From a virus (Duplodnaviria; Heunggongvirae; Uroviricota; Caudoviricetes), in the IMG/VR virus record IMGVR_UViG_2690316121_000008, positions 1 to 31,188 of that record: a stretch of DNA of 31,188 nucleotides; one strand, written 5' to 3'. Position 1 is the first letter of the stretch. Every line of letters begins with the position of its first letter. A program made the position numbers and the translations under genes. Below, one piece after another: positions 1,319-19,810 of the stretch. The notes under the pieces are model-generated. The model saw only the letters and a program-made list of their open reading frames with translations. It did no database searches and was not told the origin of the DNA.

Positions 1319-2356
1319 TCATTGGACATTCAGTGCTTTCTCCATCTTTATGTCACTAGCAAGAATTTCTGCCTGCTTTCTCAAAACCGTTAACATAACA
1401 TCTTCTTTATTTTGTACAGCAACTAGTGAATAGAAAGGTTCACTAGTTGTACAGGTCAAACGTAATATACCAAAGTCATCATGGTGAGGTATTAATGCAC
1501 GATAATTCCCATCGGTGATAAACATAAAGCGAGCGTCAGAGTATTCGCTGAGCCACATATACTTATTATTACAAAAGAAAGTATCGCGAGCATCATACAT
1601 TACGGCAAACTTAATACCAAAATTAATGATGGAGTTCGTCTGTATACAAAGTACAATAAGTGAAATGTAACCAATAAGAAATAATGGTGCAAAAAAAGAC
1701 ATAGAATATCTTAAGTTGTCAGATGTTGCTGATTTCCTTTTTTTTATTTTAGGCGATATGTTTGCTAAGTAACTAATGTAAGCGAGGTAAATGGCAAGAT
1801 AGAATGTAAAAATAAAAAATAATGCAAAAACTGCTGTTATGAGTTTGTTTGATGTTGTATCGAAAGGAATATCCAATATATTTGATGTTAGAGAGCGTGC
1901 GTAATAATATGAGATTAATGAGATGATTAACCACGAGTATTTAATTCCGATCTTTGCATCTGTTAGTGGTTTTTTTTCTATTCTATTGAGCAATTTTATG
2001 TGAGATAATATAGTATTTGTGATACACAAAATCGTAGCAAAAATAAGTGCACTAAAAATAGGTATACTGATTTGACTGATAAATTTGAAAGAAATGCATG
2101 TCAGTAAAAATAGCACTGTTGACAATAATGCTGAATTTTGTGTTTTTCTATAGTTTTGGGGGAGGCGAATGACCCGTTGATTAGGTGAATTATTATACCA
2201 GTATTTGTGTATGATGAACCCGCAAAGAACAATCATGCACAACCAAATAACAATGGGGTATAAAGGCGCTTCCTGTGGCATGATGATGAGCACTGCCATC
2301 GAGAATAATAAAGAGTAGATGATGCCAAGATTTAATGAGGGGGGCGTTTTTCTCAT
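1319..2356 (-). CDS. Hypothetical integral membrane protein (about 7 predicted TM helices plus ~100-aa C-terminal soluble domain); AT-rich moron
   Basis: 345-aa ORF, ATG start with AGAAAGG Shine-Dalgarno-like sequence upstream; strongly AT-rich codon usage unlike flanking phage genes; multiple long hydrophobic segments in residues 10-240; convergent with int. Confidence 0.6.
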   Translation of the reverse strand: MRKTPPSLNLGIIYSLLFSMAVLIIMPQEAPLYPIVIWLCMIVLCGFIIHKYWYNNSPNQRVIRLPQNYRKTQNSALLSTVLFLLTCISFKFISQISIPIFSALIFATILCITNTILSHIKLLNRIEKKPLTDAKIGIKYSWLIISLISYYYARSLTSNILDIPFDTTSNKLITAVFALFFIFTFYLAIYLAYISYLANISPKIKKRKSATSDNLRYSMSFFAPLFLIGYISLIVLCIQTNSIINFGIKFAVMYDARDTFFCNNKYMWLSEYSDARFMFITDGNYRALIPHHDDFGILRLTCTTSEPFYSLVAVQNKEDVMLTVLRKQAEILASDIKMEKALNVQ

Positions 2357-2586
2357 CGATAACCTTTCTAATGATGTATGAATCTATTAGGTGTAAAGGC
2401 TTTTATAACAGATGTTAATGACACTCGGAAAGTGATCTTATGTTTGAAAAAACAATTTGTTACATGGTTAAATGATTACACATAATATGTTGTTTATAGC
2501 GTCTGTCTATTTGTGGATACACGCTTGAACATTTCATTTATGACACGGAGCGGATACTCAGATTCGCTTGGGCTCTGTGTCATAAA

Positions 2587-2614
2587 TGAGTCAGCTCATA
2601 TCTGAGCTGACTCA
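2587..2614 (-). terminator. Perfect 12-bp-stem palindrome immediately downstream of the AlpA-like gene; putative terminator or protein-binding site
   Basis: tgagtcagctca-tatc-tgagctgactca, directly after the stop at 2617 on the minus strand, followed on that strand by TTTAT. A second inverted repeat (2540-2550 / 2573-2583) lies adjacent. Confidence 0.4.
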
Positions 2615-2616
2615 CG

Positions 2617-2811
2617 TTACTCAATAATACCTGCAAACCTATAAATCTTTCTTGATGCCCATTTATTTGGACAGGATTTAATATCAGGATCTGGAAAATC
2701 TGGCCTGTATTTTTTGCCAGTCCTCCTGTTTACGCTGTTCCAGCGAAGCACCGTCGATATTGAAACGCCACAGAATTCGGCGACTTGTTTTGTTGTCATT
2801 AAGTTGTTCAT
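2617..2811 (-). CDS. AlpA/Xis-family small HTH DNA-binding protein (putative excisionase or regulator)
   Basis: 64 aa; MTTKQVAEFCGVSISTVLRW helix-turn-helix typical of the AlpA/excisionase (HTH_17-like) family; GGGGAG Shine-Dalgarno 5 nt upstream of ATG. Confidence 0.7.
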   Translation of the reverse strand: MNNLMTTKQVAEFCGVSISTVLRWNSVNRRTGKKYRPDFPDPDIKSCPNKWASRKIYRFAGIIE

Positions 2812-2844
2812 TGCTGCTCCCCTGCGGTTGTACAGTTGAAAGAC

Positions 2845-3381
2845 TCATGCGCATGTGTGTAATTCTAATAACTCGTTAAAACGTTCCATAAACATCCCGT
2901 AGGCATGGCCCGGTGCCAGTGGAATCACGTTGAACATCTCTGTTGCCGGGATGCCTTCCAGTACAGGCCAGAAAGAGCCATCATCAAGCCCGAGATCGCG
3001 GCGTTCGGTTGCCAGCATGATGAGATCGGCATATTTCACGGGTGTACTCATAACTGGGGGTAATCCGTATTTCTCACGGATTACGGCGTCTATTTTTTCT
3101 TCCATCCGTTTATAGTCAGGAAGAAGGCGTTTCAGTGGTGCGGGAATGTCCTGACAATACGCTTCTGTTGCATCATGCATTAACGCTTCAAAAGCAAATT
3201 CCTGCGGCACCAGCTGGCTGCAAAGCACCGCATGTTGGGCGACGCTGTAGAAGTGTGAAAGATGACCGGCAAAGCGACAGATATTTGAAAGGGAAACTGC
3301 GATATCGTTAATCACGATATCGTCTTTATTTATCCTGTCATAATAAAAATGCTTCCCGGAAAAAGTTTTAATAAATGACAT
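2845..3381 (-). CDS. HD-domain phosphohydrolase, YfdR/YfbR-like (5'-deoxynucleotidase family)
   Basis: H...HD metal-binding motifs (SVAQHAVL, LMHDATEAY, DIPAPLKR) matching the YfbR/YfdR HD family; start chosen at internal ATG (MSFIKTF...) preceded by GGAGA, giving 178 aa; the ORF track allows 9 further upstream codons (to 3408). Confidence 0.75.
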   Translation of the reverse strand: MSFIKTFSGKHFYYDRINKDDIVINDIAVSLSNICRFAGHLSHFYSVAQHAVLCSQLVPQEFAFEALMHDATEAYCQDIPAPLKRLLPDYKRMEEKIDAVIREKYGLPPVMSTPVKYADLIMLATERRDLGLDDGSFWPVLEGIPATEMFNVIPLAPGHAYGMFMERFNELLELHTCA

Positions 3382-3508
3382 TTTGTTCTCCACGTATATG
3401 TGCTGCACCGCGCTGAATTCTGGTAAAAGGAAGTCCTCGCCATCCGGCGATTATTGAGTCAATTACGTTTCCATAAATGCCCCCACAGGGGCATTTGTAG
3501 TAATGAAA

Positions 3509-4333
3509 TCAGGCGGTGAAAGTACCAATAAAGGTTTCTACTTTGCTGTCTTTGAATTTCTCAACAAGCAGATCACGAAATTCGTTAGCCATATCTTCCT
3601 GCACCGCTTCCAGCTGAATAATGCGCAGAACCAGTACAGGACGATCGCCAGTGATAATGCTGAGGCGTAATTTAAACGGACGTTCTTTCAGGCCTTCAAA
3701 TGGAACGCATTTAAATTCAAATGCCACTGGCATAATGTCTTTGGTCTTCGCTTCGACAGACTCCATCAGGGAGCGTTTGCCGCTGAAGTCATTATCTTCA
3801 AAATCAGCGGTCTGGTTTGCTTCAATCGTGATTTTACGGACAGCCGCAGCCGCTTTTGTTGCCTGAATAGCGTCACCATTAGCATCAAAGCCCACAAGGT
3901 AGTCGGCCCAGTCTTCAATCCATTCTGCCAGTGACTTCTGAGAATTACGCTCGCCATTAACAGACAACAGAGCAGAGAACGGTGCTGTCTTTTTCAGTTT
4001 GAGAGTGGCGGTGTTATCGGCGTGACCTGGTTCATCAATAGTACCCAGGTTAAGAACACTGACGGCACGCATATTATCAGCATCGATAAAGCAGCGGGTG
4101 CCTTCATCTGCAAGATCTTTAGAATAACAGGTAAAGTCATCGATGCTGGCAGTGGAAAGCGCACCACGGAAACGGAAGCGATTTAAATTAAATTTTTCCA
4201 GATCATGAATGCGGAAATTCTCAGGTAATGCCACTGCGTCGGCACCAATCTTACTGATAATTTCATTAACACCCTGAGCAGAAATAAGGGCATGGATTTG
4301 ATTAATTGCGGTTGCGTCTAAGTTCTGAGACAT
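3509..4333 (-). CDS. YfdQ-like protein (DUF2303 family), function unknown
   Basis: 274-aa ORF with AGGA Shine-Dalgarno; length and position (next to YfdR-like and YfdP-like genes) match the yfdP-yfdQ-yfdR arrangement recalled from the E. coli CPS-53/KplE1 prophage; assignment from memory, not searched. Confidence 0.65.
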
Positions 4334-4398
4334 AATAAGTCCTCACTATATAAAGATATTCAGTGATGAGATAAATAATCAGTTAATTAAGAACGATA

Positions 4399-4761
4399 TT
4401 AATGACCTGCTGCGCGGAGTTTTCCGTCAGGTTCACCGGCAAGAGTCAGTAATTGTCCCTGGTCTTCCTGCAGAATAGTCAGACGACCACCGCGATTGAC
4501 ATACATCGGCGTTTCGGTGGTGTCTTCTTCGGAAATTTTCCCGCGGTTAGTCGGGCGAACATATGAGAGTTTGTGTTTGATTTTCACACGGCTCTCATCA
4601 AATGGTTCGATTTCCAGGTTGAGTGAGACCTTACCTTTGGTTTTCGTGTTCATCACACCGGAAGCGACTTCACTGAGAACTGCGCCGATTTTGGTTTCAA
4701 ATACGCCGCCGTCCAGCTCCCCGATAAATGCCTGCACATCAGTACTGCGTTCGCTAGCCAT
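4399..4761 (-). CDS. YfdP-like small protein, function unknown
   Basis: 120 aa from ATG at 4761 (MASERSTDVQ...) preceded by GAGGAG; the annotated ORF continues upstream to 4995 without a stop, but that extension lies in a GC-rich structured leader and is probably not coding. Confidence 0.55.
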   Translation of the reverse strand: MASERSTDVQAFIGELDGGVFETKIGAVLSEVASGVMNTKTKGKVSLNLEIEPFDESRVKIKHKLSYVRPTNRGKISEEDTTETPMYVNRGGRLTILQEDQGQLLTLAGEPDGKLRAAGH

Positions 4762-4810
4762 TTTGCTGCTCCTCATCATATCGACCCTGCAAGGTCGGTT
4801 GGTTTCTCCA

Positions 4811-4897
4811 CAAAACAGAGAAGAACACCTGCGGTGACAGCCGCCCGGATGGATTGGGTTATGAGCCCGTCGTCCGGTGATGATCTTCTCTGTTTTG
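4811..4897 (-). promoter_or_regulatory. 14-bp perfect inverted repeat (CAAAACAGAGAAGA / TCTTCTCTGTTTTG) with 59-nt spacer in the 5' leader of the yfdP-like operon
   Basis: Arms at 4811-4824 and 4884-4897 read directly from the sequence; lies ~50 nt upstream of the yfdP-like start in an unusually GC-rich non-coding stretch. Confidence 0.5.
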
Positions 4898-5625
4898 TAA
4901 AAAGAGCGGTACCAGCCGGAAGCAAGTGTACAAACTGGTACCGCCAAAGCAGTGGCTGTTGTGGTGACCGGTGCTGATCTCCGGCTTGCGGTCATTTCAG
5001 ACTCTCACGGGCGTTTAATTGCCCCGCCGAACAGCTCTTTTCCGCAATAGCTGCAATGTCTTTCGCGCATCAGCCTGCGCATTCACCACAACGCTGAGAG
5101 CACTTAGCCAGTTACGGCACCACACTTTGTCGCGGTTCCATAAATGCCCTCATCGTTGCACCCTGGTCTCTTCCCAGGCGTCAAACCGAATCGCCACGCT
5201 GGTTAGGCGTCTTATCAGCATCCTCATTGACTTGCACATTCCGGCTACCTGGTTTGTTTGCCCGAGCAAGGAGTGGATTGTCCCCTTTAACGTCCCCAGA
5301 CCGCTAACGACGCATGTGCCATACGCCGTGTTACAATAAAATATTCGGTATTAGTTACCAAAGAGACGATTACTCTTATGGTTGAATGTAATACCCCTGT
5401 TGAATATTTTCTTGCGTACTATTTGTTTTTCCTATATAACGAATTGGTTGTTTTATTTACATAATAAGAAGTTTTCTTGAATAAGTTTACATTGTTTTGT
5501 CTTGCTATTTTTCAAAATTCAAGAACAATGAATTGTCGCTATCGGTAATTATTCTTTATGAAATTTTATAAATAACTCCCTGCTTTTGAGTTTTGTACGC
5601 AGTGTTTTTAGTTGTCGAGGACATA

Positions 5626-5835
5626 ATGGATAATCAAAATACTCCTGTTTTTGATGTATGTGGTTGGTACTGTGTGCCAGTTAAAGATCATAATTCAGTT
5701 ATAGTTCAACTGTCCTGCAAACAACCACCATTTGAATCTGATAAAATTATCGAAAGTCCAATATATTCTTTTCCCATAAAAGAAATACCAAATCTCATAA
5801 ATACATTACAAAACATTTATGAAGAAAATAATTGA
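5626..5835 (+). CDS. Small AT-rich hypothetical protein (69 aa, four Cys); stand-alone moron
   Basis: ATG preceded by GAGGA at 5 nt; AT-rich upstream region; intrinsic terminator immediately downstream; opposite orientation to both neighbouring operons. Confidence 0.5.
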   Translation: MDNQNTPVFDVCGWYCVPVKDHNSVIVQLSCKQPPFESDKIIESPIYSFPIKEIPNLINTLQNIYEENN

Positions 5836-5859
5836 TTATAAATCCAGTTCAAAAGTGAA

Positions 5860-5881
5860 GCGTCCATTTGGGCGCTTTTTT
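5860..5881 (+). terminator. Rho-independent terminator downstream of the small moron
   Basis: GCGTCC-ATTT-GGGCGC hairpin (one G-U pair) followed by TTTTTT. Confidence 0.55.
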
Positions 5882-5995
5882 ATTTACGAATCATTCCGGT
5901 CTTCGTATGCCCCGGACGGCTACTTCGTGGGCGTCCTGCCTGTTCGATATCTTATATAGGTACATTATGTATCTCAATGGTACATTGTCAAGTAT

Positions 5996-6030: not shown

Positions 6031-6705
6031 TCAGGCTTTAATTTTGTATCTTCTTGGTTTTCCTGAGAAAATAACTGTACCAATGATAGAGCAATTACCG
6101 TTTATCTTAATGTAAGGCTCAGGCCAGTTGGGGTTTAATGCTTTGAGATAACGCTGTGTCCCGTCTTCTATCAACCTTTTGAAGGTGGTTTCACCTGTAT
6201 CGTGCATCAATGCAATAACGTCATCGCCGTGGCAGGCTGGTACTTCTGGATCGACAAAAATCATGTCTCCCGGACGGTACTCATCAATCATTGAATCACC
6301 AATCACCCTCAATATATAAGTCATTTCGCCACAGGGTACAGGGCAGGGATACGTTTCTGTTGTGCTCAAATCAACCTCAGAATAGCCAACTTCTTTCCAT
6401 GCTCCGGCCTGTACCCATGATATGACAGGGACTAACGTTATTTGTTTATTAGTGATTGAAACATCAGGTTTTTTTGTGATGTTCGTTGTCTGGTGTTCTT
6501 GATCAAGCCATCCGACAGGCAGGTCGAAACATTTTTCGATGTGCCGTGCCATGCTGTCACCGATATTTTTAGTAGCGCCATCCCCCATAAACCTGCTGGT
6601 CTGGGTAGGCTCGCGATCAATCATGGTGGCAAAGGATGAATTTCCGCCAACACCATCTCTCAGTTTTCTGGCGTTAGACCGCCGGATGTCATGGATTGTT
6701 TTCAT
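6031..6705 (-). CDS. CI-type prophage repressor with C-terminal S24 (LexA-like) autopeptidase domain
   Basis: 224 aa; C-terminal domain aligns by eye with P22 C2 / lambda CI (ISWVQAGAW, GDSM catalytic Ser region, VDPEV, TFKRL, LNPNWP, INGNC); divergent from a Cro-like gene. Confidence 0.9.
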   Translation of the reverse strand: MKTIHDIRRSNARKLRDGVGGNSSFATMIDREPTQTSRFMGDGATKNIGDSMARHIEKCFDLPVGWLDQEHQTTNITKKPDVSITNKQITLVPVISWVQAGAWKEVGYSEVDLSTTETYPCPVPCGEMTYILRVIGDSMIDEYRPGDMIFVDPEVPACHGDDVIALMHDTGETTFKRLIEDGTQRYLKALNPNWPEPYIKINGNCSIIGTVIFSGKPRRYKIKA

Positions 6706-6721
6706 AACGAAATTAAAACCT

Positions 6722-6740
6722 TTGTACCGATAAGGTACAA
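6722..6740. promoter_or_regulatory. Perfect 19-bp palindrome TTGTACC-GATAA-GGTACAA; putative repressor/Cro operator
   Basis: Located in the 90-bp divergent intergenic region between the repressor and cro-like genes; a possible -35 TTGAAG / -10 TAACAT lies just downstream and further GGTACA half-sites occur at 6784-6789. Confidence 0.55.
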
Positions 6741-7027: not shown

Positions 7028-7591
7028 ATGAGGCTAACCGTGGGTAAGCATCACTGGAAAGTAGAAAAACAGCCTGAGTGGTACGTGAAAGCTGTCAGAA
7101 AAACTATCGCGGCGTTGCCGGGGGGTTACGCTGAAGCTGCTGAGTGGCTGGATGTAACAGAGAACGCTTTATTCAACCGCCTTCGTGCAGATGGCGATCA
7201 GATTTTCCCGCTGGGATGGGCAATGATTTTACAGCGCGCGGCTGGCACTCACTACATTGCGGATGCTGTCGCACAGTCTGCTGGTGGGGTGTTTGTATCG
7301 CTTCCTGAAATTGAGGAAGTAGAGAACGCCGATATAAACCAGCGCCTGCTGGAAGTCATCGAACAGATCGGGAGTTACTCAAAGCAGATTCGTTCGGCAA
7401 TCGAAGATGGGGTAGTGGAGCCACACGAGCAGACAGCAATTAATGATGAGTTGTATCTGTCAATTTCGAAGCTCCAGGAGCATGCAGCACTGGTCTACAA
7501 AATCTTTTGCGCTCCAGAAAAGAGTAACGCCCGCGAGTGTGCAGCTCCGGGCGTCGTGGCGTTTTGTGTCTGTGGAGAAACTAACGCATGA
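7028..7591 (+). CDS. Putative CII-like / YdaT-like early regulatory protein
   Basis: 187-aa ORF immediately after cro-like gene; probable HTH near the N-terminus (AEAAEWLDVTENALFNRL); family assignment is a guess from position and HTH; alternative GTG start at 7040. Confidence 0.4.
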   Translation: MRLTVGKHHWKVEKQPEWYVKAVRKTIAALPGGYAEAAEWLDVTENALFNRLRADGDQIFPLGWAMILQRAAGTHYIADAVAQSAGGVFVSLPEIEEVENADINQRLLEVIEQIGSYSKQIRSAIEDGVVEPHEQTAINDELYLSISKLQEHAALVYKIFCAPEKSNARECAAPGVVAFCVCGETNA

Positions 7592-8424
7592 ACAGTTTAA
7601 CGGCAAATAACCGTTTGTCGCAACAGCTGGAGGTCAGCGTCGCTGAACACCTGTTGTTACGGCATGAATGCAGATTACCAAATCACCTGGCTGTAAGTAA
7701 CCACAGAGAACTTTACCTGACTGTGGGGGGCGAGTTGTGCAGGAACTTAACCGCTGGTTTCGTGACGGAAGAGGGCGTTATGTCCATGTTATTCGTTGGG
7801 AGCCAGAAACACAGCGCGTTATCTATCTTCGCAAAGACTACACGCATGAGTGCTTTAGTCCTTTGTGGAAATTCAGGCGTGATTTTGTTGAGTGTGAAGG
7901 ACCACCAGCACATTGATTCTGCCATTCCGGGACGTTACACTGTTCAGGCACCTTATAAAGCGGGTGCCGGGATTGGCGTCTTGGAAATGTTATCGGCGAT
8001 ATATGACGCGCCAGCGTCTTTTTTATCGTCTGCGTCTGTGCACACCCAAATTATGGTGGGCTGGACGGGGGCACCGAAAGGTGCGCCGGTTTCCGATAAC
8101 GCCGGTTACGCCAACCCCGTTCAGTTCACCACCAGCGAAATTGGCGTTTCCGGTGGTGAAGGTAATTCACTGTTATCGGAGGCTGCCATCATGGCTACTG
8201 TCCCAGCCCTCTCTCGTCTGAATGATGAAGACTTACATAAACTCAGTTATGTAACAACTGCACTACGTGCTCTGCGCAAGGTAACTCTTTCGGATCCGCA
8301 GGCGCATCAGGTTCTGGTAGAAACCCTTCTTAACTTGCAGGCTGAACGTATCCGTTTGGCGGATAAGGCTAATCTTCATATTCACCGTCTCCTGAATATC
8401 AGCGGAGGGCATCGTCATGCTTAA
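7588..8424 (+). CDS. Hypothetical early-right operon protein (278 aa)
   Basis: ATG overlapping the upstream stop (ATGA), typical translational coupling; no recognisable motifs by eye. Confidence 0.55.
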   Translation: MNSLTANNRLSQQLEVSVAEHLLLRHECRLPNHLAVSNHRELYLTVGGELCRNLTAGFVTEEGVMSMLFVGSQKHSALSIFAKTTRMSALVLCGNSGVILLSVKDHQHIDSAIPGRYTVQAPYKAGAGIGVLEMLSAIYDAPASFLSSASVHTQIMVGWTGAPKGAPVSDNAGYANPVQFTTSEIGVSGGEGNSLLSEAAIMATVPALSRLNDEDLHKLSYVTTALRALRKVTLSDPQAHQVLVETLLNLQAERIRLADKANLHIHRLLNISGGHRHA

Positions 8425-16398: not shown

Positions 16399-17026
16399 TA
16401 GCGATAATTTTACTCATCATCCTTCACATTTGGCTCTGTAGACAGGGTGGTGATCACTTCTGGAGTGAATCCAGATTAAACATCTCATTGCTGATGCTTG
16501 AAGTTGAGCATCTGGCGCGCGGTAAGGGGCTGCGTTGAAATAAGAGCCAGTCATTACAAATACCAGGATTTAGCCTCGTATTCGCGGGGCTTTTTATTGC
16601 CATTACAAAAGCCACTCCCTACAGAGTGGCTTTGATAATGGCTTATAGCCTACACGGGATAACTTAACTGATATCCCTTTTAACGGATAAAGGTATTCAA
16701 GCCTGACACATCATGCGCTGTATCGTCGCCGTATTCCCGTATTAACAGAGACCGTAGCCCGACGGGGAACTCCTTCTGCGAGAGTGTGCGGGAATAATCA
16801 AAAACGATGCACACCGGGTTTTTACCGCGTTTATGGTTCGCGGGTTTGTCCCTCATGCTCGCCAGTCCTGTGCGGGGGGGGAAGAAACAGGATACTCACA
16901 CAGATTCTTGTGCGAACGATGCTATTCCTTTCTGGATTATCCCGATGCCATTCATGCAAGGCGCTGTATCAGACGTTCGTCATGGCTGTCAGGCTGACGG
17001 GTCCTCCCGGTGGGGTGGGCTGCCAC

Positions 17027-17090
17027 GGGGCGGGAGCAGCGCGGAAAAAGGCTAGTTTTTGAAATTTTATTCGTCATCACCACTGCTGTA
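17027..17090. other. Putative cos site (cosN-like core GGGGCGG-GAGCAG-CGCGG plus downstream cosB-like elements)
   Basis: By eye this aligns with the lambda cos region as I recall it (GGGGCGG CGACCT CGCGG ... CTATTTATGAAAATTTT ... TTCGTCAT): here GGGGCGGGAGCAGCGCGG ... CTAGTTTTTGAAATTTTATTCGTCAT, ~190 bp upstream of the Nu1-like start. Confidence 0.45.
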
Positions 17091-17213
17091 ATTGATTGAT
17101 ATTACAGCGGTTTTATTTTTGCAGTGTCGATTTTGATTGTTTTTTGTTCATCACTAACACCGTTTGCCTAAAGTTGTTCGCAAGATGCATGTTTAAAACA
17201 TTCTGGAGCGGGT

Positions 17214-17708
17214 ATGGATCGAGAGTTAAAAAATCTGACGCTGAATATCAGTCAACTGGCGGCACTGTCAGGTGTACATCGCCAGACTGCTGCGGCAAGG
17301 CTGCAAAATCTACCCGTTGCAGGGGGGCATGAAAGCAACCTCAAGCTTTATCGGGTGGTTGATATTGTGTCGGCATTTCTGGCATTGCCACCGCCGGTTG
17401 CAGAAGGCGAAATGGACGCGCATGAGCGCAAAGCCTGGTATCAGTCTGAACGTGAGCGTCTTAAGTTCGAACAGGAAACGGCACAACTCATTCCGGCCAG
17501 TGATGTCAGACGGGAGTTTGCCATCTGGGCAAAAGCGGTCGTGCAGGTGCTGGAGACATTACCGGATATTCTGGAACGTGACTGCGGTCTGCAGCCTGCC
17601 GCTGTGAGCCGTGTTCAGTCCATTATTGATGATCTGCGCGATCAGATAGCCCTGCGGGTGACTGAAGCAGGTGCGGATGATGAGGAGGAATTACAGCAGG
17701 AGGAGTAA
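17214..17708 (+). CDS. Terminase small subunit (lambda Nu1-like)
   Basis: 164 aa; N-terminal winged-HTH (LTLNISQLAALSGVHRQTAA) and position immediately upstream of the large terminase; Shine-Dalgarno GGAGCGGG. Confidence 0.8.
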   Translation: MDRELKNLTLNISQLAALSGVHRQTAAARLQNLPVAGGHESNLKLYRVVDIVSAFLALPPPVAEGEMDAHERKAWYQSERERLKFEQETAQLIPASDVRREFAIWAKAVVQVLETLPDILERDCGLQPAAVSRVQSIIDDLRDQIALRVTEAGADDEEELQQEE

Positions 17709-19810
17709 TGCTGAATCAGGAAACCGCAAAGGCAGCACGAACCGATTCAGGTTATATCCTTCGCGCACCGAGACGAATGCGGGTTGCTGATGCCGTTGCT
17801 CAGTATATGCGGGTGCCCATGGGGGCAGGGAACTCAGTCCCGTGGGATCCGCTGGTGGCACCGTATGTTATTGAGCCGATGAACTGCCTGGCCTCGCGTG
17901 AATACGACGCAGTGATATTTGTTGGCCCGGCACGAACCGGCAAGACTATCGGCCTGATTGACGGCTGGGTGATTTACAACGTGATTTGCGATCCTGCTGA
18001 TATGCTGATCATTCAGATGACGGAGGAAAAAGCCCGCGAACACTCCAAAAAACGACTCGCCAGAACGTTTCGCGTCAGCCCGGAAGTGGTCAGTCGCCTG
18101 AGTCCGAACAAAAATGACAACAACGTTTATGACAGAACATTCCTTGCTGGTAACTACCTGAAAATCGGCTGGCCGTCAGTCAATATCATGTCCTCATCAG
18201 ATTATAAATGCGTCGCGCTGACGGATTATGACCGTTTTCCGGAAGATATTGATGGCGAGGGGGATGCTTTCTCTCTTGCCTCAAAACGTACCACCACATT
18301 TATGTCCAGCGGTATGACGTTGGTGGAGAGTTCCCCCGGCAGGGATGTGAAGGATGTGAAATGGCGACGGACTTCACCGCATGAGGCTCCACCAACCACG
18401 GGGATCCTGTCGCTCTATAACCGTGGTGATCGCCGTCGCTGGTACTGGCCCTGTCCACACTGTGGTGAGTATTTTCAGCCCTGCGGCGATGTGGTTGCTG
18501 GTTTCCGTGATATTGCCGATCCCGTGCTGGCAAGTGAGGCGGCTTATATTCAGTGTCCTTCCTGTTCAGGACGGATTATGCCTGAACAAAAACGCGAGCT
18601 GAACGGACGTGGGGTCTGGTTACGGGATGGTGAATCCATCAATGCAGATGGCAGTCGTTATGGTGATCCCCGGCGTTCACGTATTGCGTCATTCTGGATG
18701 GAGGGTCCGGCAGCTGCTTATCAGACACTCTCGCAACTCGTTTACAAACTGCTTACTGCAGAACAGGAATACGAGACAACCGGAAGTGAAGAGACACTCA
18801 AGACGGTTATCAATACCGACTGGGGATTACCTTATCTTCCCCGCGCCAGCATGGAGCAACGAAAAAGTGAATTGCTTGAGCAGCGGGCAGAGCCAGTTCC
18901 TTCCCGCAGTGTGCCGGATGGCGTTAATTTCCTTGTGGCGACAGTGGATGTGCAGGCGGGACGTCATCGCCGTTTTGTGGTTCAGGTAACGGGCTATGGC
19001 AGCCGTGGCGAACGCTGGATTATTGATCGTTACAACATCACGCAGTCATTGCGCGGTGACAGCGACGGGGAGAGCCAGCGAATTGATCCGGCCAGCTATC
19101 CGGAAGACTGGGATGTCCTGCTGACGGATGTTTTTCATAAAAGCTGGCCGCTGGCCTCCGACCCTTCTCAACAAATGCGACTGATGGCAATGGCGGTGGA
19201 CTCCGGCGGTGAAGACGGGGTCACTGATAATGCCTATAAATTCTGGCGTCGTTGCCGTCGTGATGGCCTTGGCAAACGTATTTACCTGTTTAAGGGCGAC
19301 AGCATCCGGCGCGCAAAACTGATCACCCGTACATTCCCTGATAACACCGGACGAACGGGCCGACGGGCGCAGGCCGCAGGTGATGTGCCGCTCTGGCTTC
19401 TTCAGACGGATGCCCTGAAAGACCGGGTGAATAACGCGTTATGGCGTGACTCGCCAGGTCCCGGCTATGTGCATTTCCCTGACTGGCTGGGGAGCTGGTT
19501 TTACGACGAACTGACGTATGAAGAGCGGAGCAGTGACGGGAAATGGAGTAAGCCGGGTCGCGGTGCCAACGAAGCTTTTGACCTGATGGTGTATGCCGAG
19601 GCTCTGGTCATTCTGCATGGATACGAAAAGATCCGCTGGCCGGATGCACCGGAGTGGGCGAGCCGGGAAACCTGGCTGGAGTGTGTCCCGGACAGTACCG
19701 AACCGTCACCCTCACCGGAACCGGTATCCACGCCTGTTAAAAAACAAAAACGGAAGAAAACAGTAACTGACGATGTTAACCCCTGGCTGACTTCCGGAGG
19801 ATGGTTATGA
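17708..19810 (+). CDS. Terminase large subunit (lambda gpA-like)
   Basis: 700 aa; Walker A-like VGPARTGKT; CPHCGEYFQ zinc-ribbon-like motif analogous to lambda gpA CPHCGEEQY; ATG overlaps upstream stop. Confidence 0.9.
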   Translation: MLNQETAKAARTDSGYILRAPRRMRVADAVAQYMRVPMGAGNSVPWDPLVAPYVIEPMNCLASREYDAVIFVGPARTGKTIGLIDGWVIYNVICDPADMLIIQMTEEKAREHSKKRLARTFRVSPEVVSRLSPNKNDNNVYDRTFLAGNYLKIGWPSVNIMSSSDYKCVALTDYDRFPEDIDGEGDAFSLASKRTTTFMSSGMTLVESSPGRDVKDVKWRRTSPHEAPPTTGILSLYNRGDRRRWYWPCPHCGEYFQPCGDVVAGFRDIADPVLASEAAYIQCPSCSGRIMPEQKRELNGRGVWLRDGESINADGSRYGDPRRSRIASFWMEGPAAAYQTLSQLVYKLLTAEQEYETTGSEETLKTVINTDWGLPYLPRASMEQRKSELLEQRAEPVPSRSVPDGVNFLVATVDVQAGRHRRFVVQVTGYGSRGERWIIDRYNITQSLRGDSDGESQRIDPASYPEDWDVLLTDVFHKSWPLASDPSQQMRLMAMAVDSGGEDGVTDNAYKFWRRCRRDGLGKRIYLFKGDSIRRAKLITRTFPDNTGRTGRRAQAAGDVPLWLLQTDALKDRVNNALWRDSPGPGYVHFPDWLGSWFYDELTYEERSSDGKWSKPGRGANEAFDLMVYAEALVILHGYEKIRWPDAPEWASRETWLECVPDSTEPSPSPEPVSTPVKKQKRKKTVTDDVNPWLTSGGWL

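Follow-up and report, generated by a model that had tools for sequence, protein, structure and literature searches.

Is a compact three-gene module within a lambdoid phage genome's early-left part a new entity, and what might it do to the host? The question was raised by an earlier note on IMG/VR record IMGVR_UViG_2690316121_000008 (Caudoviricetes), which described a yfdP-like gene, a yfdQ-like (DUF2303) gene and a gene for an HD-domain nucleotidase as an uncharacterised module lying where lambda carries recombination and host-takeover genes. We analyzed the full 31,188-nucleotide (nt) stretch of this record (hereafter, the window; all coordinates are window positions). By sequence comparison, the locus proved to be the yfdP-yfdQ-yfdR cluster of a lambdoid prophage of the SfV/mEp460/ST64B/LLS type, orthologous to the copy in the CPS-53 (KpLE1) prophage of Escherichia coli K-12. 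Judged from gene neighborhoods across species, the unit is better described as an obligate yfdP-yfdQ pair accompanied by a frequent but optional yfdR. As to function, we tentatively favor, at a little short of an even chance and by analogy with the K-12 proteins, a reading in which YfdR and YfdQ would damp host DnaA-dependent initiation, with YfdP and YfdQ acting as one unit.

Identity and distribution of the cluster

The three genes were found at the same limits in the sequence and in the list of open reading frames (ORFs), all on the minus strand and each with a Shine-Dalgarno-like motif ahead of its start (Table 1), in agreement with the co-oriented genes and good ribosome-binding sites of the earlier note. 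The encoded proteins are 98% (YfdP), 99% (YfdQ) and 97% (YfdR) identical to those of CPS-53, in which the genes stand in the same order and are separated by the same spacers of 65 nt (yfdP-yfdQ) and 127 nt (yfdQ-yfdR). Codon differences relative to K-12 are mostly synonymous (15 synonymous and 2 non-synonymous in yfdQ, 20 and 5 in yfdR), which fits real genes under purifying selection; four of the five YfdR substitutions fall within its last 10 residues. An upstream N-terminal extension of the yfdP ORF by 198 amino acids (aa) is not conserved.

Profile searches, together with the K-12 identities, bore out the gene names proposed earlier. YfdQ matched the Pfam family DUF2303 (PF10065) with 308.2 bits against a cut-off of 26.6 (E = 5.7e-92; residues 7–272 aligned to positions 2–269 of the 269-position model), and its family comprises 1462 clusters at 50% identity in a representative library. 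YfdP matched PHROG 204 (E = 4e-49), and its close homologues carry a precomputed match to PF27127; our local Pfam scan, for which the presence of PF27127 in the Pfam copy was unverified, returned no match for YfdP. YfdR matched PHROG 318, "deoxyribonucleoside 5' monophosphate phosphatase" (E = 8e-109).

Of 5426 complete E. coli genomes, 3186 gave a megablast match to positions 2500–5400, and in 1126 of these the match extended over 80% or more of the query; the matching region was also present in 97 phage records, including mEp460, Stx2-converting phages and Klebsiella phages. RefSeq names the E. coli genes yfdP, "YfdQ family protein" and "yfdR: 5'-deoxynucleotidase". Phages LLS (gp37-39), ST64B (gp35-37), mEp460 (gp33-35) and SfV (orf29-31) carry the trio at the same early-left position, and Zheng et al. 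2025 (PMC12315714) reported it in LLS and ST64B. The description as uncharacterised does not fit, given that the orthologues are annotated, that K-12 YfdR has been assayed and binds DnaA (PMC4776307), and that the trio has been discussed in PMC12315714. What does stand is that YfdP and YfdQ have no known function, as PMC12315714 still states for their LLS homologues.

As an entity, yfdPQR is thus already known: it is annotated, has K-12 orthologues, has been partly characterized and was discussed in 2025. A familiar cluster that occurs in more than half of the complete E. coli genomes is not worth pursuing as a new module. What the present analysis adds is the strict yfdP-yfdQ coupling in distant phages, the optional nature of yfdR, the lack of yfdS and yfdT in the copy studied here, and the link between PDB entry 9O7M and Xanthomonas phages.

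Conservation of the yfdP-yfdQ pair

A YfdQ alignment served to gather 80 loci from different species, whose ORFs we searched with iteratively built profiles. In all 79 loci that include upstream DNA, yfdQ is immediately preceded on its own strand by the gene for a YfdP homologue, an adjacency that reaches Marinobacter, Hahella and Photobacterium. A YfdR homologue follows downstream of yfdQ in 59 of the 80 loci and is missing in the other 21, among them all of the distant ones (Kistimonas, Marinobacter, Pontibacterium, Hahella and Photobacterium). Co-conservation of the three genes, by which the earlier note would have judged the module, therefore stands for yfdP-yfdQ and holds for yfdR in part. 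Matches of the Xis profile and some of those of the YfdT profile fell on overlapping or very long ORFs and were disregarded as profile drift.

The usual gene order was cII-like, cro, cI, variable genes, yfdP, yfdQ, yfdR where present, further variable genes, xis and int, and at some loci little else than the pair or trio stands between cI and xis/int. Among E. coli viral contigs nearly identical to the window region, all carry the complete trio (80/80), and the genes downstream of it vary: yfdS and/or yfdT follow in 57 contigs and neither in 23. In K-12, CPS-53 continues with yfdS, yfdT, ypdJ and torI, whereas in the window an excisionase-like gene comes directly after yfdR, in the place of yfdS/yfdT; this direct succession of yfdR and xis was seen in only 1 of the 80 close viral contigs (L082). 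Phage mEp460 likewise differs in having extra genes before xis (yfdS-like, DUF551, Ea22-like and an Rv2179c-like exonuclease), compared to which the present operon has a minimal content.

The junction between yfdQ and yfdR is a hotspot for insertions (loci L096, L097, L098 and L136; also hits H10-H15). In some Enterobacterales prophages, a leucine-rich-repeat-like protein of 175–271 aa is encoded between the two genes, and some E. coli prophages carry a PAPS-reductase-family gene in the region. Three database proteins (P0011, P0071 and P0308) contain both the YfdP (PF27127) and the DUF2303 domain; because they are shorter than YfdP and YfdQ summed, we read them as fusions that probably arose by deletion or frameshift and not as informative natural ones.

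A possible role in host replication initiation

The function that we tentatively favor derives from work on the K-12 orthologues. Noguchi and Katayama 2016 (PMC4776307) recovered yfdQ-yfdR-yfdS-yfdT as a gene set that, in multicopy, suppresses the over-initiation of hda-185. Suppression needed yfdQ and yfdR plus either yfdS or yfdT, with yfdP being dispensable, and multicopy yfdQRS or yfdQRT inhibited initiation both in vivo and in extracts. Purified K-12 YfdR bound DnaA, with Phe46 of DnaA domain I important for binding, and competed moderately with DiaA and DnaB; by analogy with lambda P, the authors suggested a lytic role.

Carried over to the present phage, the operon would be derepressed upon induction or infection and fire early, and YfdR, helped by YfdQ, would dampen DnaA-dependent initiation at the host oriC. 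As for the K-12 orthologue, YfdR would engage DnaA domain I via a Phe46-dependent contact, in competition with DiaA and DnaB, in a host-takeover step comparable to the action of lambda P on DnaA. YfdP and YfdQ would act as one unit, probably a complex, as their linkage suggests, in which the conserved, disordered tail of YfdP may dock onto a large YfdQ oligomer. By extension, the YfdP-YfdQ unit would be older and more widespread than its tie to YfdR.

The proposed outcome, a block of initiation by a small DnaA-binding factor, resembles that of lambda P, Bacillus subtilis SirA and E. coli Dps. SirA and Dps target DnaA domain I, as does K-12 YfdR, whereas lambda P targets domain III. YfdR differs from all three in that it has no sequence relationship to them, is an enzyme-fold protein and requires partner genes for its effect.

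Several observations weigh against such a role. In the K-12 study, the replication phenotype was seen in multicopy only, strains deleted for yfdQRST showed no phenotype, and a possible artefact was conceded by the authors; moreover, yfdQR alone did not suppress hda-185, and pull-downs revealed no strong binding of YfdQ, YfdS or YfdT to either YfdR or DnaA (PMC4776307). From the published inhibitory set yfdQRST, the phage has yfdQ and yfdR, but the yfdS or yfdT that suppression needs is missing: tblastn searches of the 31-kb window with K-12 YfdS and YfdT gave no match better than E = 0.33. Since yfdQR was insufficient in K-12, the DnaA-inhibition mechanism is less secure here than in K-12. In addition, the lack of yfdR in 21 of 80 loci, all distant ones included, implies that the core function of YfdP-YfdQ cannot depend on YfdR. 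Finally, the case for a YfdP-YfdQ complex is drawn from linkage, and fold searches with AlphaFold2 (AF2) models of YfdP and YfdQ found no informative structural neighbor for either protein. It is the multicopy caveat, the absence of yfdS/yfdT and the existence of a yfdP-yfdQ core without yfdR that keep our confidence below even.

YfdR as an HD-domain nucleotidase

YfdR resembles 5'-deoxynucleotidases, as the earlier note had proposed from its HD domain, although it misses the curated cut-offs: it scored 24.1 bits against a cut-off of 25.9 with the YfbR-like model (PF12917), 16.8 against 22.5 with HD_3 (PF13023), and 19.9 against 122 with the YfbR equivalog model NF003009. Because all of these scores fall short, we would class YfdR as a distinct subfamily and not as a YfbR equivalog. 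It is homologous to PDB 2gz4 (Atu1052; E = 3.5e-13). The HD metal ligands, whose loss the earlier note had named as a refutation, are intact rather than degenerate. The HD dyad and the fourth metal ligand of YfbR have their aligned counterparts in H69, D70 and D119, and H50 sits in a VAQH motif common to Atu1052; E73 aligns with the catalytic Glu of YfbR and D78 with its substrate Asp, while R36 and F37 correspond to its substrate Arg-Trp pair. Across 60 relatives from diverse genomes, H50, H69, D70, D119, R36, E73 and D78 are each kept in 58–60, and position 37 is Phe or Tyr in 59.

YfdR shares several features with YfbR, the housekeeping 5'-deoxynucleotidase (dCMP phosphohydrolase) of E. coli: the HD fold with its H...HD...D metal ligands, the catalytic Glu, and both the Arg and the Asp that contact the substrate. 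The two proteins differ in that they are only 25% identical, that YfdR scores below the YfbR-like Pfam and NCBIfam cut-offs, that the K-12 protein has an additional DnaA-binding activity, and that its substrate affinity is reported to be much lower. According to PMC4776307, Zimmerman et al. 2008 described K-12 YfdR as a structural homologue of YfbR and a low-affinity 5'-nucleotidase, and according to an earlier report, cited in PMC10870394, YfdR acts as a phosphatase on cytidine monophosphate (CMP). Deletion of yfdR left the CMP yield of an engineered strain unchanged. The K-12 orthologue is a metal-dependent phosphohydrolase of the HD type whose 5'-nucleotidase activity is weak. The best-supported reading of the protein in the window, by analogy with its 97%-identical K-12 counterpart, is that of a catalytically active HD nucleotidase of low affinity.

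These properties invite an alternative in which catalysis is what matters: YfdR would mainly be an early-lytic deoxynucleoside monophosphate (dNMP) phosphatase that shifts dNMP and deoxynucleoside pools, its DnaA binding would be an overexpression artefact, and YfdP-YfdQ would act independently. Retention of the full HD catalytic set in 58–60 of 60 relatives implies that catalysis is under selection, the protein is called a 5'-deoxynucleotidase by RefSeq as well as PHROGs, the CMP phosphatase activity cited in PMC10870394 points the same way, and the possible artefact is admitted by the authors of PMC4776307 themselves. Dephosphorylation of dNMPs, however, seems counterproductive for a replicating phage, and we consider this alternative unlikely, if deserving of some weight.

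YfdQ, YfdP and PDB entry 9O7M

PDB entry 9O7M, "YfdQ Protein", contains 36 chains and matches YfdQ at E = 2.4e-44, or at 1e-84 when a family profile is used. The sequence of the entry shares 98.8% identity with a Xanthomonas phage MET23-P3 protein and 93–96% with proteins of CP2-like Xanthomonas/Xylella phages. Like YfdQ of the window, to which it aligns over the full length at ~39% identity, it belongs to the DUF2303 family, and in CP2 a yfdP homologue lies immediately upstream: a 124-aa ORF before yfdQ encodes a protein recognized as YfdP by hhalign (probability 99.2%, E = 7e-20). In CP2, yfdQ is followed by genes for a DUF1351 protein, an Erf-like annealing protein, an exonuclease and a single-stranded DNA-binding protein (SSB). 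Phages of this type are unlike the present one in being Xanthomonas CP2-like, in possessing the Erf/exonuclease/SSB module and in lacking yfdR. CP2 shows that the yfdP-yfdQ pairing extends to a very different phage group, and that the pair coexists with a bona fide recombination module.

The AF2 model of YfdP consists of a long helix and a three-stranded sheet, with a C-terminal tail (residues 82–109) that is strongly conserved and of low AF2 confidence. YfdP was also considered as a second component of 9O7M, but a search of PDB sequences with the YfdP profile found nothing. In the literature searched, no paper mentioned 9O7M, a DUF2303 structure or a further function of YfdQ.

A more far-reaching proposal, improbable in our estimate, is that YfdP-YfdQ is an obligately paired and so far unrecognized early-phage machine, a large oligomer acting on the apparatus that initiates host replication, to which YfdR would be a DnaA-binding add-on in certain lineages. 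Such a machine would range from enterobacterial lambdoid prophages to phages of Xanthomonas, Vibrio and Marinobacter.

The large YfdQ oligomer is also compatible with a sponge, and thus touches on the counter-defence role that the earlier note had entertained, in which YfdR would hydrolyze the nucleotide second messengers of host immunity, or YfdQ would sequester them. Early expression and the HD fold, which is also used by some cyclic-nucleotide phosphodiesterases, would suit such a role. YfdR, however, belongs to the YfbR-like mononucleotidase branch, keeps the substrate residues R36, F37 and D78, and stands outside the HD-GYP and other phosphodiesterase branches; its known substrates are mononucleotides. 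YfdP, YfdQ and YfdR had no match in PADLOC-DB at E up to 0.01, and no link to counter-defence was found in the literature searched. Degradation of immune messengers by YfdR is thus without support, and we regard counter-defence by either route as extremely unlikely.

Early-left context and transcriptional control

The early-left position given in the earlier note is corroborated by the flanking cI-like and xis-like genes, a pL-like promoter and a shared operator-like palindrome (Table 1). The pL-like promoter, a strong leftward site, is the best promoter-like site of the region, and the palindrome overlapping it recurs in perfect form at 6723–6739, in the spacer between the cI-like repressor and a cro-like gene. 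With a promoter-like site and an operator palindrome common to the cI/cro spacer, "early-left operon" is a fair label, and the cluster forms the conserved head of a repressor-controlled early-left operon. CPS-53, by comparison, has yfdO upstream of the cluster and lacks the cI and pL context, whereas the window keeps the repressor together with the promoter and operator.

Table 1 Features of the yfdP-yfdQ-yfdR locus and its surroundings, in window positions
Feature	Position	Strand	Description
yfdP	4399–4761	minus	120 aa; leads the conserved genes of the leftward operon; ATG start as in RefSeq; Shine-Dalgarno-like GAGGAG
yfdQ (DUF2303)	3509–4333	minus	274 aa; Shine-Dalgarno-like GTGAGGA
yfdR (HD-domain 5'-(deoxy)nucleotidase, DnaA-binding in K-12)	2845–3381	minus	178 aa; Shine-Dalgarno-like GGAGA
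yfdQ-yfdR spacer	3382–3508	minus	127 nt; hairpins at 3500–3471 and 3450–3437
Excisionase-like gene	2617–2811	minus	64 aa; PHROG 1553 "excisionase", E = 1.6e-34; directly after yfdR
cI-like S24-peptidase repressor gene	6031–6705	minus	Upstream flank of the cluster
pL-like promoter TTGACA-16-CATAAT	5991–5964	minus	11/12 consensus matches; directly after the terminator following cI
Operator-like palindrome TGTATCTCAATGGTACA	5968–5984		Overlaps the pL-like promoter; 1 mismatch from TGTACCGATAAGGTACA, the perfect palindrome
Leader	4762–5963	minus	~1.2 kb; between the pL-like promoter and yfdP
80-aa AT-rich ORF	5593–5835	plus	Opposite strand, inside the leader; own strong terminator at 5857–5878 (plus)
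isrK and C4 antisense RNA (Rfam matches)	7948–8024 and 8049–8136	plus	Early-right region

This control bears on a further alternative, in which low expression from the prophage aids stress tolerance of the host (hydrogen peroxide, methyl methanesulfonate, acid) and the cluster has no lytic function. According to the K-12 literature, which treats yfdPQ as an operon, the host regulator SrsR binds nowhere in the genome more strongly than between yfdO and yfdP and in stationary phase switches on yfdPQ, and the genes survive in the decayed CPS-53 prophage. With an operator-covered pL-like promoter, however, the cluster here should be repressed in lysogens; in CP2-like Xanthomonas phages the pair heads an operon that also holds the Erf, exonuclease and SSB genes, and the reported phenotypes are weak. 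A benefit confined to the lysogen therefore seems to us distinctly improbable. A preprint ties yfdQ to the production of a phage called SW1.

According to the ORF lists, the leader holds no minus-strand ORF of at least 40 aa wholly inside it, and the minus-strand ORFs that touch it are the non-conserved yfdP extension and a 49-aa ORF at 4776–4925. Its part nearest yfdP, from 4762 to ~5345 (~580 bp), is ~96% conserved across many prophages and phages; it is unannotated in RefSeq, and the mEp460 annotation places two small opposite-strand ORFs there. This segment may be a leader, a regulatory region or small genes. The 80-aa ORF on the opposite strand had no family match in Pfam and PADLOC scans.

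Of the two hairpins in the yfdQ-yfdR spacer, the first (3500–3471) has a 9-bp GC-rich stem and is present in both the minimum free energy and the centroid fold. The second (3450–3437) has a 5-bp stem with a run rich in T behind it; compared with K-12, this hairpin carries a compensatory double change from G-C to A-T. Neither fitted in a simple terminator scan; they are candidates for an attenuator or an RNA-stability element.

Recombination and Chi sites

The window contains 11 Chi sites (GCTGGTGG) where 1.4 were expected from shuffles, all of them within 7280–17858 (~10.6 kb), which covers the early-right, replication and late-regulatory region. In being Chi-rich and without a Rec module, the window resembles the LLS functional type.

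The location of the cluster also brings up recombination, and the pair could be imagined as an unrecognized recombination or RecBCD-modulating function that replaces the missing Rec module. The cluster occupies the exo/bet/gam position, the left arm has no recombination gene recognizable in Pfam, NCBIfam or PHROG, and in CP2-like phages the pair lies just upstream of the Erf, exonuclease and SSB genes. Yet the authors of PMC12315714 deem a recombination role unlikely because the distribution of the cluster does not track Rec-less phages: it is neither limited to nor universal in them, and in ArgO145 it coexists with a complete four-function Rec module. A Gam-like inhibitor is hard to reconcile with LLS, which carries the trio and whose growth is enhanced by RecBCD (PMC12315714), and the Chi-rich window is consistent with reliance on host RecBCD. 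Taken together, we hold a recombination role to be very unlikely. In direct comparisons of YfdQ and YfdP as hidden recombination proteins, hhalign gave probabilities of 0.05–0.7% against lambda Bet, Exo and Gam and CP2 Erf, and neither protein had a recombination match in Pfam, PHROG or NCBIfam.

Other features of the window

Between the integrase gene and the excisionase-like gene lies a 345-aa ORF (1319–2356, minus strand) that is AT-rich (~35% GC) and, judged by eye, encodes several long hydrophobic stretches. It had no match in Pfam, NCBIfam, PHROGs or PADLOC, is a hypothetical protein in RefSeq, and looks like a moron. In the early-right region, adjacent Rfam matches above the gathering score to the Hfq-binding small RNA isrK (59 bits) and to C4 antisense RNA (83 bits) suggest a putative P1/P7-type antisense-controlled antirepressor circuit. 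Further along, four phage-borne tRNA genes occupy 13247–13556 on the plus strand (Met-CAT, Arg-TCT, Thr-TGT and Gly-TCC).

Implications

Although the genes for YfdP and YfdQ rank among the most common in the early-left operons of lambdoid phages, no function has been assigned to either protein. Their strict coupling argues for studying both as a pair, apart from YfdR, and the deposited 9O7M structure suggests that an answer may be close. If the pair were indeed a machine acting on the host initiation apparatus, it would be a widespread host-takeover device, and often the only conserved early-left content in Rec-less, Chi-rich lambdoid phages. If the link of YfdR to DnaA holds in real infection, it would define a way of silencing host replication that is common among temperate phages.

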